Of a DNA stretch of 54,263 bases, positions 5,271 to 29,862 are shown one piece after another. This DNA is from Prorocentrum cordatum. Lineage: Eukaryota. The position numbers and the translations under genes are program-made. Under the pieces are notes generated by a model, which made no database searches, had not been told where the DNA came from, and saw only the letters and a program-made list of their open reading frames with translations. The stretch lies in the NCBI GenBank assembly GCA_963575745.1, contig CAUYUJ010000254.1, forward strand, positions 62,001 through 116,263, in the 5' to 3' direction. Position 1 is the first letter of the stretch; the number at the start of each line of letters is the position of its first letter.

Positions 5271-6143
5271 CGGCAGGGCTTCGCCCCCTGCCGCCGGCCC
5301 CCTCTCTCGGATAATGGGCTATGCAAGAGCTGAATCATGAGGCCTCGGCGCCTCCGTGAAGCAGCATCGGCAAGAGAAATTGAGATTCTGATGATATTGT
5401 TGGAGTCAGTGTTGCATTTTGAACCTGCCCCCGTCTGCTGTGCTCTGAGGTTCCCCACAGAATTTCAGACATGTGGCAAATCCCATGGGTTTTTCGACCC
5501 TGACTCCGCCGATCTGCGTGAGGGGTGCCTCCGAATTTCAGAAATGCGGCAAATCCCGTTGTTTTTTCGACCCTGACCCCGGCGATCTGCGTGAGATTTC
5601 AGAAATGTGGCAAATCCCATGAGTTTTTTGACCCTGACCGCGCCGATCTGAGTGAGGGGTGCCGCGGAATTTCAGAAATGTGGCAAATCCCATGTGTTTT
5701 TCGACCCTGGCTCCGCCGATCTGCGTGAGGGGTGCCTCCGAATTTCAGAAATGTGGCGTATCCCATTGGTTTTTCGACCCCCACTCTGCCGATCTGCGTG
5801 AGGGGCACTGCCGAATTTTAGAACTGTGGCAAGTCCCATCGGTTTTTCGACCCTGACTCCGCTGATCTGCGTGAGGGGTGTCACCGAATTTTGGAAATGT
5901 GGCAAGTCCCATTGATTTTTCGACCCTGACCCCGCCGATCTGCGTGAGGGGTGTCAATTTCGACCCCCCTCAGACATTCTGGGAACCCTCCCCAGAGACG
6001 CTAACCAGGGCACTTTTCTACAACAAGGAACAGGAGCAGCAGAAAGCAATCTTGTTACAGTGGGAACTGGAAACTGGAACTGGCGCAGGGAACAGCAAAC
6101 CCTCGTCCTGCAGCCTGGTGGCCCCACAAGGGGGCCGGCGGAT
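5271..6143 (-). mobile_element. Putative non-autonomous Helentron/DINE-like element A, carrying a 73-bp tandem array
   Basis: Hairpin GGGC-TTC-GCCC at 5276-5286. CCGCCGGCCCCC at 5291-5302 is a perfect 12-bp inverted repeat of GGGGGCCGGCGG at 6130-6141, and the latter also pairs locally with GGCCCC at 6120-6125. T-rich left flank, no target-site duplication seen. Both ends are homologous to element B. Confidence 0.7.
5460..5957. repeat. Tandem repeat, 73-bp unit x ~7 (cargo of element A)
   Basis: GAATTTCAGAAATGTGGCAAATCCCATGGGTTTTTCGACCCTGACTCCGCCGATCTGCGTGAGGGGTGCCTCC; units start at 5460, 5533 and onward. Confidence 0.95.
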
Positions 6144-7264
6144 CCCCCCGCAGTCCTGCCGTTCATCCTCGCCCCCTGGCCGCTGGAAAGGCCCTGCTCG
6201 TGGACCAGGGGGTCGGGGATTTGATTTTCGCGTGGGCTCCCGCGTCCTTGGCCAGCCCTTCCGTCCTTTTACTCGTCCGCTCGCTCCCTTCCACCCTTTT
6301 TCCCCTGATCCTCCTCGTTCCTTCCATGACCAGAATCCATGGCCAGATGACCGATGCGGTTTGCGAGCCACCACGCGGCCCGTGGAAAGCCAATCGGGGC
6401 ACTGTCGCCGCCGAGCGCAAGCTTTCGTCGAGGCGTCGTTGCCAGAGCGGGCCCCGACCTCCCCCGTGAGCCGCGGACTTTCTGTGAGCTTCTGTTGCAG
6501 GTTTCCGCCTGCCAGGCCTGACTGCGCGCAAGAGGGGGCGTCAGCGACGGGGGCGGGCTTCTGAGAAGCCGGGGGGGGGTGCTCCGAGCGCAGAGGCCTC
6601 GTTAGAAAGGGCCTGTTGGCTTCGAAGGCAGTTGCCTGCTCGCGAGCAGCCCCCCCGTGCCGTTCTTTGGAGCCCCCCCGGGTTTTTCCGAAGGCTGCCC
6701 CACTCACGCCACTACCTTTGTACGCGCTGCCCACCTGCCCTCCCGCTCCTTCTCGCCCTCCCCTCCCCTCCCCTCCCCCTCGGCCCCCTCGCCGCCGCGC
6801 TCGTCCTTCTCGCCCCTCGCCCTCCTCTGCCTCGCCTTCTCCCCTCTCCCTCGCCGCGCCTCCCTCGAGCTGCGCCCCGACGTGGCACGGGGGGCGGCGC
6901 GTCCGCGCTGATGCCCCCCCCCTCCCTTCTGTCCAGGTGGGCAAAGACGAGTTTGTGGAGGGCCTGATGCGTGCAGGCGCGGCGTTTGTCGCCTCCACGG
7001 CCGGCCGTACCCCGGGGCGGGCCCCGCGCTCTGGGAACCGAGGGAAGCCGCCCTCGGCAGGGGCCAGCGGAAAACGCTAGCGGGATCCTGCTGAGGTGAG
7101 GCGAGGCCGGTGGGAGCTGGCAGAAGCCAGCGGAGGACCAGCGGTTGGCCGGCTGATGTGAGAAGCGCCTCCCCGAAAGAGGCTTATCGGTGGAACCGGA
7201 ATGGGTACGAAAGCAATTGGCACGACGCTCAGCAACAGTTCTTGTCCATCTTGAACAGGACTCG

Positions 7265-7265
<1 letters not shown>

Positions 7266-7309
<44 letters not shown>

Positions 7310-7359
7310 CGTCCGGCCGGCCGGCCGGCCGGCCGGCCGGCCGGCTGGCCGTCTGTCTA

Positions 7360-7410
<51 letters not shown>

Positions 7411-7432
7411 CTTTGTCTGTCTGTCTGTTTGT
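7266..7432. repeat. (GTCT)n microsatellite with central (GGCC)n core
   Basis: GTCT runs grade through GTCC into palindromic GGCC units at ~7315-7350 and back to GTCT. Confidence 0.95.
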
Positions 7433-7509
7433 TTTTCCCCATATCCTAAGATGGGGTTCTTGTTATTTCTTGGACGCCGCCGACTCAAGAAAACCAGAAC
7501 ACACCTAGA

Positions 7510-7735
7510 ACACAGACTTACTCATACACAGACTTACTCATACTCAGACTTACTCATACCCAGACGTACTCATGCACAGACTTACTCATACCCAATTTTT
7601 CTCATACGCAGACTTACTCATACACAGACTTACTCATACTCAGACTTACTCATACCCAGACGTACTCACACACAGACGTACTCTTACTCAGACCTACTCG
7701 TATTCAGACCTTCTCATAGTCTGAGATACTCAACA
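7510..7735. repeat. 16-bp minisatellite CAGACTTACTCATAC(A/T/C)
   Basis: About 14 degenerate tandem copies. Confidence 0.92.
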
Positions 7736-7740
7736 CACGG

Positions 7741-8962
7741 CAGATTTTGAGGATGTCTCAGGCGGGGCGCTGGCTTCAGCACCCCTAAGGGGAGCCGCCA
7801 GGGGGTGTATCACGGGCCCGTTCGCGGCCAGTTGGTGGGGATGTCTCAGGCGGTTTGCTCGTTTTCATGCCCAACATTCTTTGCTTTCAGAGCCGATTGT
7901 GAGGATGTCTCAGGCGGGGCGCTGGTTTCAGCACCCCTAAGGGGACCCGCAATGGGTGTTCTCACGGGCCCGTTCGCGGCCAGTTTGTGGGGATGTCTCA
8001 GGCGGTTTGCTTGTTTTCATGCCCAACATCCTTTGCTTTCAGAGCAGATTGTGAGGATGTCTCAGGCGGGGCGCTGGTTTCAGCACCCCCAAGGGGAGCC
8101 GCCAGGGGTGTTCTCACAGGCCCGTTCGCGGCCAGTTGGTTGGGATGTCTCAGACGGTTTGCTCGTTTTCATTCCCAACATCCTTTGCTTTCAGAGCAGA
8201 TTGTGAGGATGTCTCAGGCGGGGCGCTGGTTTCAGCACCCCTAAGGGGAGCCGCTAGGGTGTTCTCACAGGCCCGTTCGCGGCCAGTTTGTGGGGATGTC
8301 TCAGGCGGTTTGCTTGTTTTCATGCCCAATATCCTTTGCTTTCAGAGCAGACTGTGAGGATGTCTCAGGCGGGGCGCTGGTTTCAGCACCCCTAATGGGG
8401 ACCCGCAATGGGTGTTCTCACGGGCCCGTTCGCGGCCAGTTGGTGGGGCTGTCTCGGGCGGTTTGCTAGTTTTCATGCTCAACATCCTTTGCTTTCAGAG
8501 CAGATTGTGAGGATGTCTCAGGCGGGGCGCTGGTTTCAGCACCCCCAAGGGGAGCCGCCAGGGGTGTTCTCACGGGCCCGTTCGCGGCCAGTTTGTGGGG
8601 ATGTCTCAGGCGGTTTGCTCGTTTTCATGCCCAACATCTTTTGCTTTCAGAACAGATTGCGAGGATGTCTCAGGCGGGGCGCTGGTTTCAGCACCCCTAA
8701 GGGGAGCTGCCAGGGGTGTTCTCACGGGCCCGTTCGCGGCCAGTTTTTTGGGATGTCTCAGGCGGTTTGCTCGTTTTCATGCCCAACATCCTTTGCTTTC
8801 AGAGCAGATTATGAGGATGTCTCAGGCGGGGCGCTGGTTTCAGCATCCCTAAGGGGAGCCGCCTGGGGTGTTCTCACGGGCCCGTTCGCGGCCAGTTGGT
8901 GGGGATGTCTCAGGCGGTTTATTCGTTTTCATGCCCAACATCCTTGGCTTTCAGAGCAGATT
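7741..8962. repeat. Tandem satellite, 152-bp unit x 8
   Basis: GAGGATGTCTCAGGCGGGGCGC at 7749, 7901, 8053 and onward. Each unit contains GGATGTCTCAGGCGG twice, suggesting an ancestral dimer. Confidence 0.96.
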
Positions 8963-9417
8963 TTGTTGCGTTGTCAGGAGGTCTGTGCACCGAGACCACC
9001 AACGTCATGATTTTCTCAACACGTCGCCTCCCCGAGGTCTCGACGTCTTCCCCAGGACCGGCTTTTCATCCCGAGTTGTTTTCTGAAGGTCCCAGGCCCT
9101 GGGGATGGCCCCGGGAGGACGACAATCGACGAAAACCCACCGTGAAGATTTTTTCACGATGCGAGGGGGTCTGAGGAGGGGCAGGTCTCCATGAGGCCCG
9201 CTCCCAGGGGCCGGGCTTCCGGTCCGGTGCCCCGTCGTCCCTCCCCAGGGGTTCGGGCCGGGGAGGCAGGCCTTGCGTGGCGCGCGCCGAGGACCAGCCC
9301 CGAGACGGGGCCCGCGGAGGCGCAGTGGCGGTGTACGGTCGGGAACCTTGGGTTGCGGCGGTGGCGTTGGTTAAGGAATGTGTCCAGGAGGCCTTAGACC
9401 CTGGAGGTTTCTTTATC

Positions 9418-9665
9418 CACGGCCACTCCACAACCAACTGGAACTCCGCCGGCTTCCAGGCCGTGGATTCCTTATCCAATGGTCCCTTATCTCCCTCTGG
9501 ACGGGGAGCCCTGGCCTGGGCGCGGACCCTGGAAGTTTCCTTATCCGATGAGAGCGTCTGGGATACCCACGGCCAATCCAAAACTGGAGCTCCGCCGGCT
9601 TCCAGGCCGTGGATTCCTCATCCGATGCTCCCTTATCTCCCTCTGGACGGGGAGCCCTGGGCGCG
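9418..9665. repeat. Local direct duplication (~100-bp core, ~146-bp period)
   Basis: AACTGGA.CTCCGCCGGCTTCCAGGCCGTGGATTCCT...CCTTATCTCCCTCTGGACGGGGAGCCCTGG occurs at ~9436-9513 and ~9581-9660. Confidence 0.85.
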
Positions 9666-10004
9666 GCGCGCGCTATCCTGGCGCTCTGTGGGAGCGGGCG
9701 GTGTCTCTCATGCGCCCTCGCGCTCTGGTGGGGCGGGCGGTTCCCGATGCGCTACAAGACAGTCGTATTGTATGCTCGGGGCGGACGCACGCCTCCGAAG
9801 AGGACACGTGGTACGAGCATGTCCAGGTGCGTCCCAGGTCATGCTGCTCAGAAGTGCCCCCCCCACTTGGGTGCCCCCGGCAGCACGGTCGGGGGCATGC
9901 GAGCCGGGGAGGCAGCTCCGAGGTGTGGGGGTGCTGCAGCGCGGCGTGGCCGCAGGTGGTGGTCCGCCAGGAACTCGCGGCTGGCCTGCAGTCCGGGACC
10001 TACA

Positions 10005-10893
10005 CTACACCACGACCACCAGCACCCACCACCACCAGCACCACCACCACCAGCACCCACCACCACCACCTGCACCCACCACCCACCACCACCAGCACCC
10101 ACCACCACCACCACCACCACCACCACCACCACCACCACCACCACCACCACCACCACCACCACCACCACCACCACCACCACCACCACCACCACCACCACCA
10201 CCACCACCACCACCACCACCACCACCACCACCACCACCACCACCACCACCACCACCCACCACCACCACCACCACCACCACGCACCACCACCCACCACCAC
10301 CACCACCACCACACCACCACCACCACCACCACCACCACCACCACCACCACCACCACCACCACCACCACCACCACACCACCCACCCACCACCACCACCACC
10401 ACCAACCACCACCACCACCACCACCACCACCACCACCACCACCACCACCACCACCACCCCACCACCACCACCACACCACCACCCCCACCACCACACCACC
10501 ACCACCACCACCACCACCACCACCACCACCACCACCACCACCACCCACCACCACCACCACCACCACCACCACCACCACCACCACACCACCACCACCACCA
10601 CCACCACCACCACCACCACCACCACCACACCACCACGCACCACCACCACCACCACCACCACCACCACCAACCACCACACCACACCACCACCACCACCACC
10701 AACCACCACCACCACCCCCACCACACCTATCCACCACCACCACACCCCACCACCACCCACCACCACCACCACCACCACCACCACCACCACCACCACCACC
10801 ACCACCACCACCACCACCACCACCACCACCACCACCACCACCACCACCACCACCACCACCACCACCACCACCACCACCACCACCACCACCACC
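10005..10893. repeat. Long (CAC)n trinucleotide tract, ~890 bp
   Basis: Nearly pure CAC repeats with scattered 1-bp indels. This tract generates the poly-P/H/T ORFs. Confidence 0.98.
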
Positions 10894-11129
10894 TCCTTTG
10901 TCCCCTCCCTCTCCCAGGAAGGAGGAGAGGAACAGGAGGATCGGGGAGGAGTGTGGCCGTAGGGGTGGTGAATGTGGTGGTGTATCGAAGACGCCTACGG
11001 CGAATCACCGCCGCCCCCTGCCTTTGTGGAAGCGCCTATGTGGCCGAACGTTGAGGCCAGACCTGCCAAGCCATCGGACCATGTGTTCCCCGAATCGGTT
11101 TGGAAAGCCTTCGGGGAACACGTGAGCGT

Positions 11130-11920
11130 CTTGATGGTCATCGTCGCCGTCTTGGAGGCCTCTTGGGCGATCTTTCGGCGATCTTTGGGGGCTCTTGGGC
11201 CGTGTCGGGCCGTCGGAAGGCCGAAAAAAGGGAAATGCCCAAATCCATCAAAAACCTTTGGAAAATCAGTGATTTTGGCATCTTTTGGCCTTCCTGGAGG
11301 CCCTCTTGGGGGCCTCTTGGGCCCTTTTGGGCCAGCTTCGAGCGAACTTCGGCCATCTTGGTGGGTTCCTGGCACGTCTGACGCCGTCGGGAGCCGTTTT
11401 GGGGGCCTTTCTGGGCCAACGGGGGACCCTCTTGGGGCGCTCCAGGGCCGTCTTGGAGGCCATCTTGGGCGTCTTGGAGGCCATCTTGGGCGTGTTGGAG
11501 GCCTCTTGGGCCCTCTTGGGGCCCTCTAGGGGCCATCTTGGAGGCCACTTGGGCCATCAGGGGGCTCTCTTGGGGGCCTCTTGGGGGATCTTGGGGGCTT
11601 CTTGGGCCGTCTTGAGCCGTCGGAGAGCCGAAAAGGCGCAAATGCCAAAATCCTTCAAAAACCAATGGAAAATCAATGATTTTGGCCTCTTCGGACTCTC
11701 CTGGAGGACCTCTTCGAGGCCTCTTGGGCCGTCTGGGAGGCCTCTGGGGGGCCTCTTGGGCCGTCTTGGGCCGTCTTGGACTCTCTTGGGCCGTCCTGGA
11801 GGCCGTCTTGGACCATCTCGGGCGGACTTGGAGGCCATCTTGGGCTATCTTCGCGATTTTTTGAGGATGTCCCGAGCGAAACGGCCGTTTTTGGGCACGG
11901 TGGCGGGACGGGCCGGATCC
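11130..11920 (-). repeat. Dispersed repeat built from ~11-bp (G/C)TCTTGG(G/A) units
   Basis: Dense CTCTTGGG/GTCTTGGAGGCC units. Related blocks lie at 15640-16160 and 28030-29700, and inverted at 41705-42290. Ends in an inverted element-end motif at 11894-11920. Confidence 0.85.
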
Positions 11921-12219
11921 CACTGGGGAGTTCTTTTGGAAAAAGAACCAAAACCAAAACCTGAAACGTCCAGCACGCCGTGCACCCCTGCAAGCAGGGG
12001 GCGGCGGATCTGATGGCCTCCGGCCCATCCCGCCACCGTGCCTGGGGTGTGGGTCAGAGTTCTGAGGCTTGGAGGATGAAGGAAGGTCCCGAGGGCACGC
12101 CCACGACTCGCCCAGAGGCACGGCGGTGTATATTTCTGCAGCCCGTACACCGTGGCTCGAAGCTGCACGCCTCATCGTCATCGTCATCGTCATCGTCATC
12201 ATCATCTCTGCTGTCCTGC

Positions 12220-12910: not shown

Positions 12911-13309
12911 CCAACAGAGGTTTGCTTCTTGTCCGAGATCAGTCTGGTCGAGTTCACCTGGGCCGAGCTCGTCCGGGCCGAGTTCAGCCTGGCCGAGTTC
13001 AGCCTGTCGACGTCGGCAGCCTGTCCGAGCTTTTGCCCCCCCTGGCACTCCCCCCTCTGCCTGCACAGGGCCTGGGTCACGTCCGGGCCGACAGCCCGTC
13101 CCATCCCTCAGTCTTTCTGTTTGTTTGCTGGGTTGAATATGGATTATTGAATCAATTTCCCTTCCGTATCCGCTTTGGCGCTCTCGCCTCTGCAGAGGCT
13201 GCGTTTCTGAACCTGAGGCTCGCGCTCAAGCGTTTTGGGGTTCCTCCCAAACCGCCCCCCCCACAACGACAACGACCACGCTCTTGGGCGATATTTCTTG
13301 TCAATTTAT

Positions 13310-13770
13310 TCCGGGAGGCTTTGGCCAGAGAGGGCCCGAACCTCAGGAAAGGCGCTCTCGCGTGAGATTTCCTTGCCAATTGGCACCAGAAGGGGGGTCC
13401 TTTGGAGCAGTGTTGCCGGTATTTGCGGATGCCGGCACGACCGTTTCGCTTCAGACTTCTTCGCGGTTCAACACCACAACGGGGTCATTCGGAACAAGAT
13501 TGCTGTTACTCGCGGATGCCAGAACGATGTTTTCGTTTGAGACTTTTGTTCGATTCGCCATCGCAGGGAAATTATTCACAGCATTCGTGCTGCGAATCGC
13601 GGATACAGGAAGGGCCGTTTCGCCTGAGACTTCTTCGCGATTCATCCGCTACTTGTGGATGCCCCAGGAGGCCCCAGGACGCTCCAGGATATGTGTTCGG
13701 GGAGCGTTTTTCGGCCTTCCGCCCTCGCGAGGCCCCAGGAGGCATTTCCTGCATTTGGGGTGTGTGTCTG
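13310..13770. repeat. Dispersed repeat copy 1 with internal ~65-70-bp subunits
   Basis: GGCCAGAGAGGG...ACCTCAGGAA.GGCGCT.TCGC.TGAGATTTC through GAGGCCCCAGGA.GCATTT aligns with 17150-17630. Followed by (GT)n at 13836-13891. Confidence 0.8.
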
Positions 13771-13831
13771 GGGAGCCGTTTCTGGCTCCCCCGTTCCGAG
13801 GAGGCCGCAGGAGATTTTTTTTGTTTCAGGA

Positions 13832-13893
<62 letters not shown>

Positions 13894-15553
13894 GGGGGCG
13901 GTTTTGCGGCGTCCCCGTCCCCAGGAGGTCCCAGGAGGCCCCAACAAACCGTGGGAAACAATTCTCAGTGTTGGGATCTTTGTTCGGGGAACGATTTTTG
14001 GCCTTCGTGCGCTTCGCTCCTGTAGGCTTCGTTCCTATTGGCTTCGCCGCCCCTCTTTTTGGGCTCGATTGTTTTTGTGTGTTTACGTATGTTGTTGTTT
14101 GATGCCTTTTCGGGGGCTCGAATCCTCAGTGTTTTACGTGCTTTCCTTACTATTGCCCCTCGAGTGGGGGTCGAATCCTTGTACGTTTGCTCCTGTACAT
14201 TCCTCCTCGACTGGGTCTCGAGTTTTTTGTGTTTTACGTATGTTCCTATTGATTGCCCTTCGCCTGGGGCTCGAACTTTTCGTGTGTCCCATCCTTTCCG
14301 TTCCCCAAAGTCGCACTGCTTGTAATGTGTCGTATGAGCTGACAATCTGAATGTGCATCGAAAGAGGTGATGGCTCGACCTCCTTGGGCGGGAGATCGGC
14401 GTATGGGACTGTTGGCACTCTTTTCATCTAGTTCCCCCCAAAAGGAGTGGCAAGAGGATGGATGCATGCGGCATGTGGAAACATGGCGCGTGAGAGTAAC
14501 ATGGTTGTATGCTACTTGGTGGGCAATCATTATTGTTAGACCCCCTGTCTCCGCTTTGGCGCTAATGCCTTTGCGTTGGTTGTTGTTCCTTTGAATTTGT
14601 CGCTCACGTTTGAGCGTTTGGGGGTGCCGCCCAAACCCGTCCCCCAACAACCGCAGCAACAGCAGCACCAGCAGCATTACCAACAGCAGCAGCAACAACA
14701 ACATCAACACCAACAGTACCCATAGCAACAACAACAACAACAACGCAACAGCAGAATCAACACCAACACCACCACGAACAACACCACCAACACTAATTTT
14801 AAGACTGTTTGCTGGAATTCGCTCACGTGCCATCCAACACGTATATCCCAATCCTTCGGTACCCGCCCTCATCGTGTTCGATCGTGCCCCCATTTGGGTT
14901 ATATCGTCCGCGCGTGCGACATGTATTTTGTGCAGTCCCTAAGACAGGGGAAGGGAGGACGGATGGAACGGGGGAGGAAAAGGATGTAACACGAGAAATG
15001 TTAGCAAAAGGGGGGCTAAGAACATAACGCATGTGGTACAACCAGACGAGCAGATCGGGCGGGCAGACCTTGGCGGGCGGGTCGGGAAGGCGGGCTTTGG
15101 CGGCCAGGTCGAGCAGGCGGGTTGTTGAAGCGTGAGTCCTGCATGCGTCGCGAGGAAGTCTAGAGTTCCTGCATGAGTCGTGAGAAAGTCTAGAATGACA
15201 GCGCGATTCCCAAGTAAATCGTTAGAGCAACCAGAGCGAGAGTGTGATTCATGCGTGTCGAGGGCGCAGCGCTTGAATACATTGCGAGGAAATCCCACGC
15301 GAGAGATCGATTCCTGTATACTTTGTGCGGAAGTCTCGCGCGAGAGCGCGATGTCGGAATACATTGTGAGGAAGTGTACGGCGGGAGCCGTTGTTGTTGC
15401 AATCGGGGGGCCCAGGGGTACAGAAAACAGGGTGCGAACCCCGAAGGGCCATCTCAATTGAAAAAGCCCAATGTGCACAAGTGGGAGATCAACAGGATTA
15501 GTTGCGAAGGCCTTACGGCCGTTGCCGCCGACCCTGAAGGGGGACGACGACGA

Positions 15554-15615
<62 letters not shown>

Positions 15616-15639
15616 TGGGTCAGAGTCCTCAGGGATTCT

Positions 15640-16165
15640 GTTTGTGGTCTCTTCGGAGCGCTCTCGGAGGCCCGTGGGGGCAGTTTTGGGGGTCCCTTGG
15701 GAGCATCTTGGAGGCCTCTTGGGAGCCTCTTGGGAGCCTTTTGGGGCTTCCTTGGGGCCTGGGGGCCGCTTGGAACCACTTGGGATCCTCTTGGGGGCCT
15801 TTTGGGGGCCTCTTAGCCTCTCGGGGCAGAGGGCTCGAAATGTCCGTTTTGTTTCTCTGTCTGGGCACCTTCTTGAAGCTTTTTTGAGGGCCTCTTGGGC
15901 CCTCTTCGGGCCCCGTCGGCCAGCTTCGGGACCCTCTTGGAGGCCTATTGGGGCGATCGTTGGAGCCTCTTGGACCGTTTTGGAGCGTCAGGAAATCAAT
16001 GAATTTTGCCTCTTGGGGCTCTTTTGGGAGTGTTCTTCGAGGCCTCTTGGGGCGTCTTCCAGTCCTCTTGGGCCGTCTGGAGGCTGTAAGGATGTCTTGG
16101 ACCGATCGTTCGGCGATTCGGGGTCCTCTTGGACCGATTTGGAGGCCTGGCTCGTCTTGGGACTG
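15640..16165. repeat. CTCTTGG-family dispersed repeat
   Basis: Same ~11-bp units as 11130-11850. Preceded by (GAC)n at 15543-15614 and by a hairpin + CCGCCGACCC end motif at 15509-15534. Confidence 0.8.
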
Positions 16166-16210
16166 AAAACGCAATGTGCACCGGTGGGGGGGGGATCAAC
16201 CAGATTTTAT

Positions 16211-17101
16211 CCGCAAGGGCTTCGCCCCCATGCCGCCGGCCCCCCTCTCCTAGAATGGGACTTGCCAGAGCTGTGTTGGGATGCCTGGACGCTGACGTGA
16301 AGCAATGTTGGGGGTTCACGCGAGGGCCAATATTCATTTACGAGGGTTTATGGCTTCGGTGGCGCGACTATTCGGTAATTTAAAAAGTTTTGTGGCTTCG
16401 GGGACGCGATCACCGGGAAATTTACGAGGGTTTGTGGCCTCGGGGACGCAGAGACCGTGTAATTTATGAGGGTTTATGGCCTTGGGGGCGCAACCATAGC
16501 ATAATTTACGAAGGTTTATGGCCTCGGGGACGCGAATTTTGTATAATTTACAAATGGTTTGTGGCCTCGGGTACGCAAACATAGTATAATTAAAAAAGGC
16601 TTATGGCTTAGGGGATGCGAATCTGGTGTAGTTTTCGAGGGTTTACGGTTTCGAGAGCGCGAGCATGTTGTAATTTACAAAGGTTTATGGTTTTGGGGGC
16701 GCGAACATTGCGTAATGTATTAAGGTTTATGGTTTCGGGGATCTGAATATTGTGTAATTTACAAGGGAAGGGATTCGATTTCGGGAACGCGAACATCGTG
16801 GATGTCGTGTAATTTATGAGGGTTTATGGCTCCGGGGACGCGAATCTGGCATACTTTCTTATGGATTGTGGCTTCAGGGACGCGAATCTCAAGTATTTTT
16901 ACGTGTTCACGACCCCCCGGGAATTCAGACAACGCGATCCAGGGACGCTAACCAGGATGCTTTTCGGCTCCCCTCCTCGCGCGTTCAGTAGCAAAGGAAG
17001 CAGAAAGCACTGTAACAGTGGAAACTGGCAACTGCAGCTGGTACAGGGAGATGCAAGTCTAATCTTCGCAGCCTGATGGCCCCGCAGGGGGGTCTGCGGA
17101 T
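16211..17101 (-). mobile_element. Putative non-autonomous Helentron/DINE-like element B, carrying a 42-bp tandem array
   Basis: Hairpin GGGC-TTC-GCCC at 16217-16227. CCGCCGGCCCCCC at 16233-16245 versus GGGGGGTCTGCGG at 17087-17099 (11/13 inverted match). Flanked by TTTTAT and ATTTT. Shares GACGCTAACCAGG, GCAGAAAGCA, TGGAAACTGG and GCAGCCTG.TGGCCCC with element A. Confidence 0.7.
16335..16902. repeat. Tandem repeat, 42-bp unit x ~13 (cargo of element B)
   Basis: TTTACGAGGGTTTATGGC(C/T)TCGGGGACGCGA + ~8 variable nt + TAA, with a 42-bp period. Confidence 0.92.
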
Positions 17102-17149
17102 TTTAAGAATGAGATTTCAACGTTCCCGTGGGGTTTCCTTACAATTTAG

Positions 17150-17630
17150 TCCGAGAGGTCCTGGCCAGAGAGGGTGCGGACCTCAGGAAGGGCGCTATCG
17201 CCTGAGATTTCTTCGCAATGTAGCTTCACGGGGGGGTCCGTCAGAGCAGCATTGCCGCTACTCTCGGATGTCGGAATGTCGTCAGTTTCGCTTGAGATTT
17301 CGCAATGTAGCATTACATGGGGGTCCTTCAGAACCAGGTTGCTGTTACTTGCGGTGTCGGAACGCCTTTTTCGCTGGAGATTTGTTCGCGATTCAGCACC
17401 ACAGGCGGGTCCTTCAGAGTATTCATGTTTCTATTCGCGAATGCCAGAACACCCGTTTCGCTTGAGCCCTCTTCGTGATTCAAAATCAACCGGGAATCCG
17501 TCAGAGCACTCTTGCCGCTTCTTGCGGAGGCCCCAGGAGTCCCGAGGACGCTCTAGGGATATTTGTTCGGGGAGCGTTTTTCGGCCCTCCCGCCCCCTGC
17601 GAGGCCCCAGGAAGCATTTTCTGGTTGGGA
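17150..17630. repeat. Dispersed repeat copy 2 (homologous to 13310-13770)
   Basis: Colinear similarity by eye, including ATAT.TGTTCGGGGAGCGTTTTTCGGCC.TCC. Confidence 0.8.
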
Positions 17631-19426: not shown

Positions 19427-19526
19427 NNNNNNNNNNNNNNNNNNNNNNNNNNNNNNNNNNNNNNNNNNNNNNNNNNNNNNNNNNNNNNNNNNNNNNNNNN
19501 NNNNNNNNNNNNNNNNNNNNNNNNNN
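19427..19526. other. Assembly gap (100 N)
   Basis: Run of N after a (GGA/GCA)n tract. Confidence 1.
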
Positions 19527-20881: not shown

Positions 20882-20913
<32 letters not shown>

Positions 20914-21215: not shown

Positions 21216-21482
21216 CTTCCCGCGTGGGGCCGCGCGTGAGCGCCTTTTTCTCCACGCGGTGTGCCACGCTGGCGGCCCGCGTGCGCCGCGGCGTAAGGTC
21301 GCCATGTCTCCTCGCGTAAGGCCCGTCTCTTTTCGTCGCTCACCTGTCTGCGCCGCCCGCTGGGCGCCGCCGCTGTCCCAGGATGGGGTTCGACGACTTC
21401 GCCCGGATCGGCGCGGTACTCGCCGCCCGCTGTTGCGCTCGCCGTCGTCGTCGTCGTCGTCGGCGGCGTCGTCGTCGGCGTC

Positions 21483-21514
<32 letters not shown>

Positions 21515-21589
21515 TGTCGTCGTCGTCGACTTCTCCCCCCGTCCTCGCGTCGTGAAAGAACTACGACGGACGGTTGTGGGCTATGGGGG

Positions 21590-21651
21590 GCGATGATCGT
21601 GATTGTGATTCTGATGGTGGTGAGGATGAGGATGATGATAATGACACTGTC

Positions 21652-21736
<85 letters not shown>

Positions 21737-21961
21737 CTGCTGATGATGATGATGATCAGGATGATGATGTTTACGATGCTGACGAGGTGGATGAGGAGGA
21801 CGAGGACGAAGAAGATGATAATAATGAGTATGACGGTGACGATGATGACGATGATGACGACGCCGATGAAGCTGATGATGATAATGATGATGATAGTTGT
21901 AACGATCATGGGTGGTGGATGATGTATGTTGGCTGATGGTTGATGGTGGATGGTGGTGGGT

Positions 21962-22011
<50 letters not shown>

Positions 22012-22199
22012 CAGAATAAGAATGATGAGGGTGGTGAATGTGGTGGACATGTAGACGATGCTGCTGATGATGATGTTGATGACAACGGCGACGTTGATGC
22101 TAGTGATTAGTAATAGCATGATGAGGACGAGGAGTAGGGAGACGATCATGATGAATCTGGTGACGACGACCATGCTGATGCTGATGGTGATGATGATGC

Positions 22200-22237
<38 letters not shown>

Positions 22238-22330
22238 GTGACGACGATGCTGACGACGATGCTGACGGTACTGACGACGAGGATGACGGCGACGCCGACG
22301 TCGACGACGCTGATGATGATCAGGATGATC

Positions 22331-22397
<67 letters not shown>

Positions 22398-23281
22398 CGC
22401 TGATGATGCTGATGATGGTGGAGGTGGTGATGATGATGGTGAAGGTGATGATGATGATGATGGTGACTATTATTATTATTATTATTATTATTGTCATTAT
22501 TATTATTGTTGTTGTTATTCTGGATGGTGATGATGCTGATGATGATGCTGATGAGGATGATACTGATGCTGGTGATGATGCTGCTGCTGATGATGATGAG
22601 GATGATCATGAGGATGATGCTGATGATTCTGGTGGTAGTCTGGTGGTGGTGGCGGTGGCGGTGGTGATGATATAATGGTGGGGACGCCGACGATGAGGAT
22701 GAGGATGAGGATGAGGATGAGAATGTGGATGAGGATGAGGATGAGGATGATGATGTTAATGATGATGATGATGATGCTTATGATGGTGATGATGATTATG
22801 ATGACGGCGACGATGATGATGATGCTGATGGTAATGCTGATGATGATGATGATGATGATGAGGATGATGATGAGGATGATGATGACGATGATGTTGATGA
22901 TGATGATGATGATGCTGATGAGGATGATACTGATGCTGATGATGATGATGCTGATGATGATCACGATGATTTTGTTGTCGTTGATGATGATTGTGGTGCT
23001 GATGATGCGTATGACGACGGCGCTGATAATGATACGGATGCTGCTGCTGATGATGCTGCTGATGATGCTGCTGATGATGTTGATGTTGCGGAAGACGACG
23101 ATGCTGATACCGATACTGATGCTGCTGCTGCTGACGAGAATGACGATGATGACAATGATGATGATGATGCTGATGATGATGCTGACGCTGATGCTGATGC
23201 TGATGCTTATGACGCCGCTGTTGATGCCGATGATGCTGCTGCTGCTGATGATGATGATGATGCTGATGATGATGCTGATGT

Positions 23282-23345
<64 letters not shown>

Positions 23346-23439
23346 ACTGATGACGATGATTCTGATGATGATGAGGAGGAGTATATGATGATGATAATGA
23401 TGATGATGCTGATGCTGATGCTGATGCTGATGCTGATGC

Positions 23440-23513
<74 letters not shown>

Positions 23514-23790
23514 TCGAGGTGGGGAAAGGTTGAGGAGGACTAGGAGGGGGATGTTAAGGATGAGGATGAGGAGCATGAATCAGGACGCGGGTGGTGATGC
23601 TGATGATGATGGCAAAGGTGATGATGATGGTGATGAGGAGAAGGAGCGAGGGAGGCAAACGTGAGGAGGGTGAGGAGGAGAAGGAGCAGGAGGAGCAGGA
23701 GGAGGAGGAGGAGGAGGAGGAGGAGGTGGAGGAAGAGGAGCAGGAGGAGGAGGAGGATGAGGAGGAGGTGGACCAGGAGGAGGACTAGGT
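21590..23790. repeat. ~2.2-kb degenerate (GAT)n trinucleotide field with (TAT)n, (GATGAG)n, (GATGCT)n and (GAG)n patches
   Basis: GAT/GCT/GAC/GGT variants with several phase shifts. Confidence 0.97.
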
Positions 23791-24664
23791 GTCAGTGAAG
23801 GGGGAGGGAGGAAGGCCGGGGCAGGAGCGAGGAGGGAGGATCTGCAGAAGGAGGGGGAGCACGGCAATGGTTTTTGAGGTTCCAGCCGGCTATGGCACGT
23901 GTTGGGGGGGCTGGAGAGTCCATGCGTTTCTGCAGAGTTTTTTGATATTCGGAGGGTTTCAGGAAGAGGTACACGAGGAGGAGGAGGAGGACGAGGAGGA
24001 GGACGCTGTCGGGTGATAGCCTCAACACAACCCTGGCCCAAGTGACCCCATCGTTGCAGGCCCAGATGGCCTCGAGCACCCCTCACGAGGCCCAGAGGGC
24101 CCACAATGATTTCCAAGATGGCGCAAAAAGCTGGGAGGACCTTCGGACAGGATCCTCCGCCTCCTCCCTCTCCCTCCTCCCCTTTCCCTCCGTCTTTTTG
24201 TTGTTGTTTGTTTTCTCACACTCTCTCTCTATTGCGCTACTATTTGCGTACCGTCTTGGTATGCAATTTGAATACCCCGTCGCGTCAGACGTTCGGATCG
24301 GATCCCAGTGCCCCTTCGGTCCGTGTGTGTACCACAGGCTGGAGATCCACGCAGCTCGGAAGAAGCACGAACAACCTCCCATAGCACCAACTTGCTAGGA
24401 TGCAACTGCTGTGAGGTTAGGTCAGTCAGCTTGGACCCTGACCAGTGTGTTTCGAGCAATATATGTTCTCGAAAATATGTGGAGTATTCAGTGTGGTGCA
24501 GCCTGCGTGGTGCAATATGTATTGTGCAATCTATGTCGTGCAACATGTATTGTGCAATATCGGTTGTCGAGTCTTAGTTGAGCAGATTATGTGACACAAT
24601 CTATGTGTATATAGAAGTACACATATATACATATATATATATATATATATGTGGTGCAATCTAG

Positions 24665-25306
24665 GTGGTGTCATCAATTTCGAAAAACTGGGAGTTGTCA
24701 ACTCCACAGTTCGCGCGCCCCCGCGGGGGCGGCGAGCGGGCGCGGCGCGCCGCGCGCCCCGCCCTCCCGGCAGTTTCCCGCCGTGGCGCCCGCCGCCCTG
24801 CTCCTGGAGCTCCGCGCGGCCCTGGCGAAGCAGTGACCCCCCCCCCGAAGCCGCAGGGAGGTCGCCGTTGTTTTCCACCCTCTTCCGAAGAAGAAACATG
24901 CGTATGAACATGAACTTTTGGCACTTCGCGCGGATTTCTCGGATCCGCGCTGGGAGCCCCCTGGCGGTGCCTCCGGCGCCGCCCCTGGCGCGCTCCGCGC
25001 GCCAGGGATGGGGGCAAAGCGCGGATTCAAGAAATCCGCGCGGAGTGCCAAACGTTTATTCCCAACCATCCTGTGGTGTTGGGTCTCTCGTTTTGAAGAG
25101 ACAGCGCCCCGCGTTCCTTCCTCCTCCCGCTTCTCTCTCCCCTTCCTCCCTTCTCCCCCTCATTGCCTCTGCTCTCGGCACACCCCTCACACGTTTCGTA
25201 GCCTCATAGGGAGCTCCACCGAAGGTCCCAGTGGCACGGCCCGCATGCGGTTCCCCCACCCAGGGCAGCGTTTCGTGGCCCCTTACCCGCAATTTGATGA
25301 CACAAC
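24665..25306. mobile_element. Possible MITE-like element with nested inverted repeats
   Basis: GTGGTGTCATCAATTT at 24665-24680 versus AATTTGATGACACAAC at 25291-25306 (14/16 inverted). Internal 34-bp inverted repeat at 24917-24950 / 25019-25052. Confidence 0.45.
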
Positions 25307-25732
25307 ACATCTAGGTCGTGAGTGCAGTTACCCATCGGAAGGTGTTCGCGAATATCACATGGCGCAGTGACGCGTGGACCCAGCCCATTCAGATACAGGA
25401 CTCGGGCGGGTAGGTGAAGACGGTGATGACGGGATCGGTGACGACGGTGATGAGGTCTATGGCGGTGGCGATGATGATGAGGGCGGTCACATTGACGATG
25501 ACGATGATGACGACGATGGCAATGATGAGGCTGGTGATGCTGTTAGCGATGCTGATAACGATGGTGCTAATGAGCATGATGCGTATGTGCGCGCAAACAC
25601 ATAACTTTGTTGGCATATCAGGATTTCGCATGAATTTAAACACTTCTATGCTGTATTGCCCAGAGCACGCATATTATTTGAAGGATTCGGGCGTGCGCGC
25701 GCGGAGACGGGGCCCGCAGTGCGTTATTGTAG

Positions 25733-27283
25733 TGGCCTCCGGCCAGTGCCGCCGATCCGGGTTGCTACCGATTCTGCTTGCAACGGATGGCCTTTTTATG
25801 TTTATACGTAGAGCACTCGCTCGAGACATCCTCATAAGATAAAGATGTTGAACTCGCTTGGGCAACCTTCGGATATTCGAAAGTGACGATATCGCGTGAA
25901 CAGCCAAACTCATGGGATGTCCCCTCCCACCGTCGGGCCTGCATGGCGTCAGCCATGGCGTCAGCCCCCCGCCCCCCCCCCGGGCGTGAATGGCGTCAGC
26001 CATGGCGTCGGCCCTCCCCCCCCCCCTCTCCTCTCCCGAGCCTGAATGACGTCAGCCATGGCGTCAGCCCCCCCCCTCGATAGAGTGAAGCTTGAGCGAG
26101 CTCCCCCGTCCCTCCCCCCTCCAGGGCCTGAATGGCGTCAGCCATGGCGTCAGCCCTCTCCCCTCTCTCCCCGACTCTTCCCTCGCGGGCCTGAATGGCG
26201 TCAGCCATGGCGTCACCCCCCCCTCCCCCCTCCCCCCTGCTGGGCCTGAATGGCGTCAGCTATGGCGGCAGCCGCCCCCCCCCCGACAGCGAAGCTTGAG
26301 CGAGCTCCCCCCCCTTCCCCCCCTCCCGGTTCTGAATGGCGTCAGCCATGGGCTTCAGCTCCCCCCCCCCCCTCCGACCCCTCTCCTCCGGGGCCCGAAT
26401 CTCCCCCCCCCCTCTCCCTCCCTTCCTGGGCCTCAATGGCGTCAGCTTGGCGGCAGCCCCTCCCCCCCCGAAGGAGCGAGTTGGAGAGAGCCCCCCCCCC
26501 CTCCCTGTCCCGACTTCCTCCTCGGGTCTGAATGGCGTCAGTCATGGCGTTCCCCCCCCCCCTCCTCTCTTCCCCATGGCGTTCCCCTCCCTCCTCCTCG
26601 CCCCCCTCCTCCCTCCCAGGCATGAATGGCGTCAGCCTCCTCCCCCCGACAGTGCGAAGCCCTCCCCCCCTCCTCCCTCCCGGGCATGAATAGCGTCAGC
26701 TCCCCCCCCCCGGGCCTGAATGGCGTCAGCCCTCCCCCCCCTCCCGACAGAGCGACCCCCCCCCCTCCTCCTTCCCGAGCCTGAATGGCGTCAGCCCCCT
26801 CCCCCCCTCCTCCCTCCCGGGCCTGAAGTGGCGTCAGCTCCCCCCCCCTTCGACAGAGCGAAGCTTGAGGCGAGCCTAAGCCCACCCCCCTCATCCCCAT
26901 TGCGTTCCCCTCCCCCCCGCCCCTCCTCCCTCCCGGATGGCGTCAGCCTCCCCCCCCCCGATAGAGCGGAAGCCCCCTACCCCTCCTCCTTCTGGGCCAG
27001 AATGGCGTCCGCTCCCCCCCCCCTCCTCCCTCCCCGGTGCCTGAATGGCGTCAGCCACCCCCTTCCCGACAGAGCGAAGCTCGCTCCCCCTCCTCCTCCC
27101 GGGCCTGAATGGCGTCTGCCCCCCCCCCCCCTCTTCCCTCAGGGCCGAATGGCGTCAGCCCCCCCCCCCCCCTCCTCCCTCCCGGGCCTGAACGGCGTCA
27201 GCTTCCCCCTCCCCCCCGACAGAGCGAAGCTCGAGCGAGCTCAAGCCAACTCTTTCAGAAACTCACACGCCGGATCGGCGGAT
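25733..27283 (-). mobile_element. Putative non-autonomous Helentron/DINE-like element D, carrying a GCCTGAATGGCGTCAGCC array
   Basis: Hairpin TGGCC-TCC-GGCCA at 25733-25745. CCGCCGATCCGG at 25749-25760 is a perfect 12-bp inverted repeat of CCGGATCGGCGG at 27270-27281, which is preceded by CACG and followed by ATTT. Confidence 0.72.
25935..27245. repeat. Irregular tandem array of GGGCCTGAATGGCGTCAGCC cores separated by C-rich linkers
   Basis: About 20 cores; periodic GACAGAGCGAAGCTTGAGCGAG sub-motif. Confidence 0.92.
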
Positions 27284-27545
27284 TTGCCAGAATCGGCGGG
27301 TGCGTGGAGGTTGTTTGATGTTTCCGATATGCGCGCACGTTCGACCCGCATGGTTTGACTTGGCAGCATTGCCAAACAGCATATTGTTTGGTGCATGTCA
27401 GCAGGTGCGCGCGCAGAGATCTGACAGCAAGGGGTTTGCAAAGCAAGGCTGCTGAAGGGCTGCAGGGAGCGGCCCCGACCTCCGCCCCAGTGGCCCCACT
27501 GGTGGGCGACCCCAGGGCGTTCCGTCGTGAGGGGGCGATGCATGG

Positions 27546-27582
<37 letters not shown>

Positions 27583-27780
27583 CCCCCCCCCGGCGCTCTC
27601 CCCGCCGCAGCTGGCAGCTCTGAGTGGCCGGGCTTCCTCTCTCCCCGTCGCGCCCGGGTTCATCCTCCTCCTCCTCCTCCTGTTCCCGTGCATTGCGGCC
27701 CGAATTTGCATACAGCGTGTCCCCTGTTGCCTATCCGCCAGATCAGTCAGCCTATGCCCAACCGCCGACGCAACAAATGT

Positions 27781-27811
<31 letters not shown>

Positions 27812-27885
27812 GAGCGAGGGCTGCAGCAAAGGGGGCCAGGAGGGCCCCCTCGGGCCTCGCCTTTCTCCACCCCGAATTTATTTAA

Positions 27886-29862
27886 TCGCTTCGCTCATTC
27901 CGCCGGCCCGTATTGGTGCACGGCTGTCGAGTGCCCGTGTGATCGTTGTCAACGGGGTGCTGCTGGGTAGTTTTTTTGTTTACGGATGGCTGGCTTTGGG
28001 TGATTTCGCAGGCGGGAACCATTCTTTGTCTCCATGTTGGGCCCCTCTTGGGCCCCTTTTGGGGTCCTCTTGGACCGTCTTGGGCGCCTCTTGGGCTGTC
28101 GTGGAGCCCTCTTCGGCGGTCGTGGGGCTCTCTTGGAGGCCTCTTGGACCGTCTTGGGGTGGTCTTGGGGGCTTCTTGGGCAGTCTTGGAGCGTCGGAGA
28201 GGCGAAAAGGCGAGGAGGCAAACAATCTCGCAAAATCTAAAGGACATCAATGGTTTTGGCGCTCTGAGGCTTCGTGGACGTTCATTGGGATCTCGTTGGA
28301 TGCCCTCGAGGGCTTCTTGGAGACTCTCGGGAGTCGATGTCGAGCCTCTTGGGGTCTCTTTCGGGCCCCTTGTCGCTTGTTGGGGCCTCTTAGGAGCCTC
28401 TTGGGGCGTCCAGGAGGCCTCTTGGAGCGGAAGGCTCGGATTCTCGGTTCGTGGTCTCCATCTTGGGTCTCTCTTGGGGCCCTCTTGGGGTCTTCTTGGA
28501 CCGTCTTGGGCGCCTCTTGGGCTGTCGTGGGGCTCTCTTGGCGGTCGTGGGCCTCTCTTGGAGGCCTCTTGGGCCGTCTTGGGGTGGTTTTGAAAGCTTC
28601 TTGGGCCGTCTTGGAGCGTCGGAAAGGCGAAAAGGCGAGGAAGCCAAAAACCTTGAAAAACCCAATGGAAATCGATGGTTTTGGCGCTCTGAGGCTTCGT
28701 GGACGTTCATTGGGATCTCGTTGGATGCCTCTGGCTTCTTGGAGACTCTCGGGAGTCGATGTCGAGCCTCTTGGGGTCTCTTTCGGGCCCCTTGTCGCCT
28801 TTTGGGGCCTCTTAGGAGCCTCTTGGGGCGTCCAGGAGGCCTCTTGGAGCGGAAGGCTCGGATTCTCGGTTCGTGGTCTCCATCTTGGGTCTCTCTTGGG
28901 GCCCTCTTGGGGTCCTCTTTTACCGTCTTGGGCGCCTCTTGGGCTGCCGTGGGGCCCTCTCTTGGGCTCTCTTGGAGGCCTCTTGGGCCGTCTTGGGGTG
29001 GTCTTGGAGGCTTTTTGGGCAGTCTTGGAGCCGAGGAGGCAAACAACCTCGCAAAACCTAAAGGACATCAATGGTTTTGGCGCTCTGAGGCTTCGTGGAC
29101 GTTCATTGGGATCTCGTTGGATGCCTCTCGAGGGCTTCTTGGAGACTCTCGGGAGTCGATGTCGAGCCTCTTGGGGTCTCTTTCGGGCCCCTTGTCGCCT
29201 TTTGGGGCCTCTTGGGGGCCTCTTGGAGCCTCCAGGAGGCCTCTTGGAGCGGAAGGCTCGGATTCTCGGTTCGTGGTCTCCATTTTGGGCCCCTCTTGGG
29301 GTCCTCTCGGGGTCCTCTTCGACCGTCTTGGGCGCCTCTTGGGCTGTCGTGGGGCCCTCTTGGGCGGTCTTGGGGCTCTCTTGGAGGCCTCTAGGGCCGT
29401 CTTGGGGTGGTCTTGGAGGCTTCTTGGGCCGTCTTGGAGCGTCGGAAAGGCGAAAAGGCGAGGAAGCCAAAAACCTTGAAAAACCCAATGGAAATCACTG
29501 ATTCTGGCCTCTTGGGGCTCTCTTGGAAAGGGTCGGGGCTCTCTTGGGACGTCTTGGAAGCTTCTTGGGCCGTCTTGAGGCCGTGTTGGGCGTCTTGGGC
29601 CGATCGTTCGGTGATTCGGAACCCCCTTGGACCGTCTTGGATTCTTGTTGGGGCCCTCTTGGAGCGCTCCGGGGAGCGTGGAAGGCCGCACCCAGGAGGA
29701 AAACCAGCTCTGACCTGAGTTTGCCGGGAGTGTCCCGGGACCTTGCCGGGGTACTTTTCGCCCGGGCCCCCCCGGGGGCCGCCCCGCGCGCGCGAACTAG
29801 AAATATTGTTAAGTAGTTACCGGAGATCTTAGCACGCCTCTGGCCCGTTGGGCTGGCGAATT
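27886..29862 (-). mobile_element. Putative element C enclosing CTCTTGG-family higher-order repeats (~410-420-bp period)
   Basis: GC-TTC-GC mini-hairpin at 27888-27894 + CCGCCGGCCC at 27900-27909. Right end GCACGCC..GCCC-GTT-GGGCTGGCGAATT at 29832-29862 (8/10 inverted match). Internal GGTTTTGGCGCTCTGAGGCTTCGTGGACG occurs at ~28252, ~28677 and ~29073. Confidence 0.5.

Follow-up and report, generated by a model that had tools for sequence, protein, structure and literature searches.

Satellite-carrying elements with paired, asymmetric ends in Prorocentrum cordatum: probable non-autonomous rolling-circle transposons of the Helitron2/Helentron branch

Elements with paired asymmetric ends in the window

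Contig CAUYUJ010000254.1 of the Prorocentrum cordatum assembly GCA_963575745.1 was analysed over a stretch of 54,263 nucleotides (contig positions 62,001 to 116,263; hereafter the window, in whose coordinates all positions are given). An earlier note on this DNA had described four intervals, A, B, D and C, as tandem arrays enclosed between two unlike ends: on the left a 3-nt-loop hairpin followed by an oligomer starting with CCGCC, and on the right CAGCC or CACGCC and a hairpin ending in the reverse complement of that oligomer, then AT. We found this arrangement in A, B and D and in a full copy that the note had not listed, E, which is abutted by a probable satellite-free mini copy, F (Table 1). 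The elements are probably non-autonomous rolling-circle transposons of the Helitron2/Helentron branch, similar to the HINEs, residing in a dinoflagellate nuclear genome.

E was recovered, together with A and D, by scanning for CCGCC-starting 12-mers with their reverse complement within 6 kb, and the motif coordinates of all window elements were verified by string search. For the statistical assessment, the full grammar was defined as an exact pair of 12-mer arms (CCGCC..../....GGCGG) no more than 3 kb apart, the right one followed by AT and the left one preceded, at a distance of 3-5 nt, by a 3-nt-loop hairpin. This combination occurs three times on the plus strand of the window and not at all on the minus strand, and it appeared in none of 1000 first-order Markov resamples generated in 2-kb blocks, in which bare pairs had a mean of 0.145. 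As the grammar had been defined from A and D, E constitutes an independent confirmation. A motif-free scan, requiring a hairpin, a gap, any 11-mer and subsequently its reverse complement with AT, and making no demand for CCGCC, returned only A, D and E in the window and a further 13 hits in the metagenome loci described below, with 16 in one orientation against none in the other.

The earlier proposal that the oligomer co-varies from element to element, beyond chance, was upheld by these resamples and by the arms themselves. Five arm types (A-type, E, D and two from metagenome loci, L010-upstream and L055-upstream) each match their own partner at 12 of 12 positions and the partners of the other types at 7-10 of 12; in L055-upstream the covariation extends to the outermost base (TCGCC.../...GGCGA). 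The pattern is genuine and has solid statistical backing in A, B, D and E, whilst C is doubtful.

Table 1. Features of the elements identified in the window. Strand refers to the Helitron sense; arms are given in window plus-strand order.
Feature	Position	Strand	Remarks
Element A	5269-6143	minus	complete A-type copy
A, outer left AT	5267-5268
A, 3' hairpin	5276-5286		GGGCttcGCCC
A, left arm	5291-5303		3' inverted repeat, CCGCCGGCCCCCT
A, satellite	5460-5953		73-bp unit
A, short run	~6065-6090		(ACTGGA)-like
A, CAGCC	6111-6115
A, 5' inverted repeat	6120-6141		with nested hairpin; AT at 6142-6143
A, right arm with AT	6129-6143		AGGGGGCCGGCGG+AT; arms pair 13/13
Element B	16211-17101	minus	A subfamily at both ends
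B, hairpin	16217-16227		identical to that of A
B, left arm	16233-16245		CCGCCGGCCCCCC
B, satellite	16336-16767		42-bp unit
B, right arm with AT	17087-17101		GGGGGGTCTGCGG+AT; arms pair 11/13
Element D	25728-27283	minus	complete, CACGCC class
D, hairpin	25733-25745
D, left arm	25749-25760		CCGCCGATCCGG
D, arrays	25934-27217		C-rich, ~55/108 bp
D, CACGCC	27266-27271
D, right arm with AT	27270-27283		CCGGATCGGCGG+AT; arms pair 12/12
Element E	10986-12009	minus	newly found full copy, CACGCC class
E, hairpin	10992-11002		CGCCtacGGCG, then 5-nt spacer
E, left arm	11008-11021		CCGCCGCCCCCTGC
E, interior arrays			CTCTTGG-type
E, inverted copy of F left end	11894-11917	plus	reverse complement of F left end, including part of its hairpin; 24 nt, 1 mismatch
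E, CACGCC	11974-11979		then local hairpin
E, right arm with AT	11994-12009		GCAGGGGGCGGCGG+AT; arms pair 14/14
Element F	12010-12131	minus	probable satellite-free mini copy, ~122 bp; abuts E at a single AT
F, left end	12010-12042
F, hairpin	12015-12025		GGCCtccGGCC, then catc
F, left arm	12030-12042		CCGCCACCGTGCC
F, CACGCC	12097-12102
F, right arm with AT	12117-12131		degenerate, 10/13, tentative; 90 nt downstream
Interval C	27882-29862	minus	doubtful as one element
C, left end	27900-27909		degenerate, A-type-like, CCGCCGGCCC
C, array	28028-29512		422-bp higher-order unit
C, right end	29833-29838; 29855-29861		CACGCC class; CACGCC and GGCGAAT, respectively

Elements A and B are true homologues at both ends, with homology that begins at TTTTAT and ends at GCGGAT: their left 60 nt are 87% identical and their right ~190 nt align at ~70%, whilst the interiors consist of unrelated satellites (a 73-mer and a 42-mer). 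D repeats the layout of A and B with different sequences. The right end of F was considered tentative because matches with three mismatches are expected by chance. The common grammar that the earlier note had extended to C is only weakly represented there. Its arms match at only ~8 of 10 positions, the left 'hairpin' does not fold (-1.1 kcal/mol, z +2.1) and no subterminal arm with a palindrome is present; the interval is mixed, combining a left end like a decayed A-type with a right end of the CACGCC class.

The end grammar was not found at the borders of the large window arrays at 12-1794, 1973-3130 and 3319-4876. A 152-bp satellite at 7740-8962 has units containing CCCCyaaGGGG-ag-CCGCCAGGGG, in which CCGCC comes after a 3-nt-loop hairpin, with matches at 7795, 8099 and 8555; these may derive from an element end or may have arisen by chance. 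The window is interrupted by two 100-N assembly gaps (19427-19526 and 34567-34666).

Relatives in marine metagenome contigs

A 28-nt probe derived from the left end of A and B (AGGGCTTCGCCCCC, 2-3 nt, CCGCCGGCCCCC) matched 55 marine metagenome contigs bearing ~33 record-name prefixes and representing 49 distinct upstream flanks (loci are designated L with a number where they need to be told apart). The same probe had no match in prokaryote genome contigs and none in viral contigs. Among sequencing runs, matches amounted to small shares only (0.15 or less), for the most part in marine metagenomes and with no RNA run listed, and they were given no weight. Upstream of the probe, homology ends 2-6 nt before AGGGC, with the consensus ..AT|CCTA-AGGGC, and interiors diverge directly after the arm into at least 32 unrelated internal sequences among the metagenome contigs. 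Complete A-type copies were present in 11 contigs, with 0.47-1.56 kb between the arms, and all 11 end with ..CAGCC-hairpin-GGGG(G)CCGGCGG followed by AT; two more complete metagenome copies carry other arm sequences. Right ends in the metagenome loci were invariably co-oriented (32 vs 0).

Two pairs of near-identical copies, L020/L032 (97.8% identity over 1397 nt) and L009/L011 (94% identity over 898 nt), have unrelated flanks, and in both pairs homology gives way exactly at AT|CCTAAGGGC at one end and beyond GGCGGAT(AT or TT) at the other. The boundary check proposed in the earlier note was therefore passed, in that the limits of the family coincide with the end motifs. The elements are a dispersed, widespread family of small non-coding mobile elements.

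It might instead be supposed that the ends are immobile, being conserved junction or structural sequences of satellite blocks that were spread by segmental duplication or gene conversion, as one-third of the window is tandem repeat, everywhere along its length, and several window flanking segments are duplicated. This supposition does not account for 49 unrelated flanks, for the sharp two-sided boundaries of near-identical copies, for insertions within (AT)n microsatellites and within the satellite of another element (L051), or for the same ends around unrelated interiors; it is largely refuted, and we regard it as highly unlikely. Duplicated segments flanking B and C comprise 13302-13459 and 17142-17301, 15502-15588 and 29948-30032, and 16011-16143 and 29510-29641, at 76-85% identity, and window 13400-13650 is a repeat of ~95 bp (..gagacttcttcgcg..).

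Locus L051 encodes three A-type left ends within 1.3 kb, the second of which lies mid-way in a continuous (TTGATTAT)n array and represents either an insertion into the satellite of another copy or a duplicated end. At this locus a left end and an internal inverted copy could also be read as 32-bp terminal inverted repeats (TIRs). This reading of the element boundary was rejected: no AT follows the inverted copy, and the same subfamilies show sharp ends of the short form.

Satellite arrays within the elements

At least one tandem array was reported by Tandem Repeats Finder (TRF) in 17 of the 19 complete copies examined, the two without being L043 and L055-upstream, and coverage ranged from 0 to 78%. 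The claim that each interval encloses a tandem array was confirmed for all five window intervals, in which arrays occupy 33-78% of the length. The arrays differ between subfamilies. Element B and metagenome contig L025, situated at different sites, share both their ends and the 42-mer array (78-80% identity), in line with the earlier suggestion that the elements spread satellites. L009 differs from L011 by a 176-nt indel within a 90-mer array, and L020 from L032 by indels of 21 nt and 103 nt within 21-mer and 103-mer arrays, respectively. As these near-identical pairs differ mainly by whole repeat units, the elements appear to transport arrays that subsequently grow or shrink in place. The spread of satellites by the elements is thus supported.

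One dispersed satellite of the window, composed of 10-11-nt CTCTTGGGCC-type units mixed with an A-rich unit (..aaaacc..atcaatgattttggc..), is located at 11140-11845, 15649-16143, 28028-29640, 41341-41406 and 44582-44679, and at positions 1-60 of L025; it therefore lies inside E and C, beside B, and outside any recognised element. The window also harbours very long trinucleotide arrays, (TGA)n with ~630 copies and (CAC)n with ~290 copies, at 21612-23513 and 10008-10893.

Strand sense and structure of the ends

The Helitron sense strand is the minus strand of the window. The end motifs of the earlier note stand under this orientation, its 'left' end being the Helitron 3' end and its 'right' end the 5' end. 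On the minus strand, the 5' arm CCGCC(N7-9) starts 1-2 nt past the boundary, which reads ..GGCGG|AT on the plus strand, in A, B, D, E and the 13 complete metagenome copies. In the minimum-energy folds of A, B, D and E this arm pairs with the next 5-7 nt, and the partner within this 5' hairpin changes along with the arm (GGCCCC/GGGGCC in A, CCCCTGC/GCAGGGG in E and CGCCG/CGGCG in D). At the opposite end, the 3' arm is separated from AT by 20 nt (A-type consensus and F), 21 nt (D) or 22 nt (E), and between the two lies a hairpin with a 4-5 bp stem and a 3-nt loop. The 3' ends preceding AT read ..TTAGG, ..TTAAG, ..TCTTCG or ..ACTACA.

These are the structures described for Helitron2 and for the HINEs. 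Helitron2 elements have asymmetric terminal inverted repeats of 8-15 bp and a T as the 5' nucleotide; the 5' repeat, 0-2 bp from its terminus, folds with bases downstream of it into a 5' hairpin, the 3' repeat sits ~20-30 bp from the other terminus with a 3' hairpin directly after it, and compensatory mutations keep the repeats paired (Bao and Jurka 2013, PMC3627910). HINE/DINE-1 elements and the oyster Cg_HINE have subterminal inverted repeats (subTIRs) of 11-15 bp, an inverted repeat complementary to the 5' subTIR a few nucleotides off, a 3' palindrome, central tandem repeats, and TT or T-rich targets without target site duplications (TSDs) (PMC4067079, PMC7492417). When read on the minus strand, the elements display every structural feature of Helitron2 and HINEs. 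The earlier note's view of them as non-autonomous rolling-circle elements is accordingly supported by anatomy, boundaries, covariation and dispersal, whilst the rolling-circle mechanism itself is inferred from the anatomy only.

Insertion sites and competing explanations

Several observations weigh against the rolling-circle interpretation. AT is present just outside the left end at 49 of 49 distinct loci and after every right end, which is formally a 2-bp direct repeat. The target is AT or (AT)n, rather than the T-rich, TT or TTTT sites of Helentrons, HINEs and Chlamydomonas Helitron2, and the T-rich insertion sites invoked in the earlier note have to be given up. No pair of empty and filled sites was detected among the window and metagenome loci, and the elements lack a CTRR 3' end. 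Pfam searches of 150 of the 157 window frames of at least 150 aa, 28 window open reading frames and 32 of the 67 loci frames of at least 150 aa revealed no Rep, helicase or transposase domain, the only matches being unrelated flanking domains in three loci (L012, L020 and L021) and sub-threshold noise; Rfam at gathering thresholds gave no match in the window. The energies of the short hairpins are by themselves no better than those of shuffles (z -0.3 to -2.6), hence support for the hairpins comes from position and covariation and not from thermodynamics. Tandem repeat also makes up 32% of the window outside the elements, so enclosure of an array is, taken alone, weak evidence. Finally, a spliced-leader relic, which would point to the taxon of a contig, was found in none of the 55 metagenome loci.

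Flanking sequences read ..(T/A)AT at one border and AT(A/T)T at the opposite one, and are often (AT)n microsatellites (L008, L018, L026, L035 and L036). The absence of TSDs asserted earlier holds for duplications longer than 2 bp, and is otherwise not established, given AT at both ends without exception. The flanking AT fits insertion between A and T, for which the sense strand would read 5'-TCCGCC...TTAGGA-3', Helitron-like with a 5' TC; it also fits a 2-bp AT duplication of the kind produced by ISL2EU DDE transposons, and insertion between the two ATs of an ATAT site. An empty site alone would not separate A|T insertion from a 2-bp duplication.

Two candidate sites were rejected: window 29790-29815 as an empty site for L025, as the right flanks do not match, and ATTTTA on both sides of B as a TSD, as it is repeated in no other copy. 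Element A is inserted at the AT at the foot of a terminator-like inverted repeat (AAAAGGCTC...GAGGCTTTT, then AT) at window 5229-5268.

The AT flanks raise the question of whether the elements could be MITE-like derivatives of an ISL2EU-like cut-and-paste DDE transposon, with the 12-14-mers as transposase binding sites. ISL2EU elements prefer AT-rich targets and generate a 2-bp TSD that is typically AT (PMC4122938), matching the AT on both sides of every copy, and inverted repeats are present here as well. These repeats are not terminal inverted repeats, however: the left end, CCTAAGGGC, and the reverse complement of the right end, CCGCCGGCC, agree at 5 of 9 positions, and whilst the right repeat is terminal, a hairpin separates the left one from its end, which is 20-22 nt away. 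The asymmetry does not vary and is confined to one strand (16 vs 0 and 32 vs 0), and the window and loci frames searched contained no DDE domain. The lack of terminal inverted repeats, together with an asymmetry that is strictly strand-specific, disfavours a DDE origin, which we consider improbable.

Association between neighbouring elements

At 21 of the 49 distinct sites, nothing but AT separates an A-type left end from the right end of another element, an arrangement also seen between E and F in the window. All of these neighbours belong to the CACGCC/CACGGC class, and no other element directly follows any of the 11 A-type right ends seen. The CACGCC-class neighbours hold the adjoining left end in reverse complement, ~75-130 nt ahead of their own right end, as a copy comprising the arm, the spacer and part of the hairpin. 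At a local alignment score of at least 24, this inverted copy was present in 14 of the 24 neighbours tested (10/17 and 4/7, some loci being one site sampled twice) and in none of 17 free-flank controls; the maximum score was 16 in those controls and 23 for shuffled queries. The copy in E fits its neighbour F and not the A type. In L003 an F-type copy lies beside an A-type neighbour, indicating that the copy belongs to the CACGCC-class element, and in L011 the copy has diverged further than the neighbour, a recent insertion, indicating that the copy predates that insertion.

A docking sequence carried by the second, CACGCC or 'E-like', class of elements may guide insertion through base pairing, although we hold this to be a tentative and rather unlikely explanation. 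The inverted copy could possibly also interfere with the termination signal of the neighbour, leading to co-mobilisation, or be left over from an old rearrangement and have spread with the family. Helitrons of different families lying next to each other, and tandem arrays arising by bypass of the terminator, are on record, in an account in which no mention of the inverted copy was found (PMC4067079). Were docking to operate, a eukaryotic rolling-circle transposon would be choosing its target by complementary DNA-DNA pairing of the arriving single strand with an element already in place; otherwise, one family may parasitise the termination signal of another.

Insertion directly after the ..GGAT end of another element, along with the strict orientation bias, hairpins at both ends and the want of any duplication exceeding 2 bp, would also suit single-strand transfer by a different HUH enzyme, for instance of the IS200/IS605 type (Y1), acting 3' of a short ..AT target with the hairpins as binding sites. 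To our knowledge, long-range complementary arms are not a described feature of IS200/IS605 elements. Complementary 12-14-mers at long range that undergo compensatory change are, by contrast, a hallmark of Helitron2/Helentron elements (PMC3627910). In addition, the literature searched records no such transposase for dinoflagellates, nor were TnpA or TnpB domains found in the window or loci frames searched. An IS200/IS605-type origin is very improbable in our estimation, and the Helitron2/Helentron interpretation is retained.

Host genome

A full 22-nt spliced-leader relic is present at window 50008-50029, and a 15-mer with 0-1 mismatch at 31043-31057, 39789-39803 and 45327-45341; these are the four window matches of a 15-nt query motif that we take to be part of the dinoflagellate spliced leader. 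Retroposed genes that carry a relict spliced leader at the 5' end are a hallmark of dinoflagellates, and the complete relic thus identifies the host as a dinoflagellate, as had been presumed from the outset. The G+C content of the window is ~60%, which is high for the dinoflagellate phylum. The dinoflagellate spliced leader has been described previously (PMC11453091). Each relic heads a repeated segment of ~5-9 kb, followed by ..GCCATGTCGCTC.., and together these look like several tandem retroposed copies of one gene on the plus strand, though no Pfam domain was identified in the frames of the segments.

Proposed transposition and significance

On the minus strand, a copy starts 1-2 nt after a host A or AT with T-CCGCC(N7), the 5' asymmetric terminal inverted repeat, which folds back on the next 6-8 nt as the 5' hairpin and is followed by GGCGTG or GGCTG. 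After a variable centre, usually with tandem repeats, the 3' end comprises the complement of the same 12-14-mer, a 3-5 nt spacer, a hairpin, 4-7 nt and the host AT. If the elements do transpose as Helitron2-type elements, a RepHel protein (HUH nuclease and Pif1-like helicase) supplied in trans would nick at the 5' T and peel off the sense strand until halted at the 3' repeat and hairpin, with the pairing of the two repeats perhaps marking the end point, after the proposal of Bao and Jurka for Helitron2 (PMC3627910), and the single strand would be joined into an AT or (AT)n site. The internal arrays are carried along with the element, expanding or contracting by whole units where they sit, and unrelated mini-satellites are thereby scattered through the genome.

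The genomes of dinoflagellates are very large, with most repeats unclassified. A high-copy family of probable rolling-circle type, easy to recognise and carrying many unrelated mini-satellites, offers a concrete source for part of this repeat load and for dispersed arrays, and extends the pattern of satellite spread by Helentrons and HINEs, seen in insects and molluscs, to alveolates. With its short, unvarying sequence, the end AT-CCTAAGGGCTTCGCCCCCTGCCGCCGGCCCCC provides a practical probe for genome annotation and for recognising dinoflagellate-type contigs in ocean metagenomes. The AT target is unusual for this transposon group and the pairing of neighbours possibly a new feature; if confirmed, the AT target and the docking-like inverted copies would represent new biology for the group.

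Comparison with known transposons

The full-text literature searched, a limited library, contained no description of non-autonomous Helitron2/HINE-type or satellite-carrying elements in dinoflagellates, and the words Helitron, rolling and satellite are absent from a 2024 review of dinoflagellate genomics. The earlier note knew of no description in dinoflagellates; within that literature this holds for elements of this kind, yet not for the enzyme class: a Helitron2-like RepHel without endonuclease has been reported in Symbiodinium microadriaticum (Heringer and Kuhn 2021, PMC8788227), demonstrating its presence in the phylum. That protein is a plausible kind of autonomous partner for the present elements; the report, in the part available, concerns protein and phylogeny and gives no terminal sequences.

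Introner-like elements of dinoflagellates (Roy et al., preprint 10.1101/2020.10.14.339549) are likewise short and non-autonomous with inverted repeats, and one class ends in TAAG/TAGG, similar to the 3' ends ..CCCTTAGG and ..TTAAG observed here. They differ in generating TSDs of 3-8 nt, of which no counterpart was seen here, and in carrying or recruiting splice sites; this distinction is drawn from their description.

Canonical Helitron1 elements resemble the present family in several respects: insertion here is compatible with A|T, the 5' end would then read TC, a 3' hairpin is present, and different families occur directly side by side (PMC4067079). The 5' hairpin and paired subterminal repeats of the present family are, in contrast, described as lacking in Helitron1 (PMC3627910).

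Helitron2 (PMC3627910) shares with the present elements the positions of the arms, both hairpins, the 5' T and compensatory changes, and its non-autonomous copies measure 0.5-1.6 kb. Its Chlamydomonas families insert after TTTT, whereas here the site is AT or (AT)n with AT on both sides; furthermore, satellites are a regular cargo in the present family and no RepHel partner is known for it. Helentrons are defined by an AP (apurinic/apyrimidinic) endonuclease in the partner, and the elements are accordingly placed in the combined Helitron2/Helentron branch. The HINEs (Thomas et al. 2014, PMC4067079; PMC7492417) differ in using T-rich or TT sites instead of AT, and in mites the HINE 3' subTIR lies 38-60 bp from the end compared with 20-22 nt here (PMC4067079). 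In common with the present family they possess a nested 5' inverted repeat, a 3' subTIR followed by a palindrome, one fixed orientation of modules, a microsatellite-like run in the 5' module, which is ACTGGA-like in A and B, and a central satellite-like array that differs between families (PMC4067079, PMC7492417).

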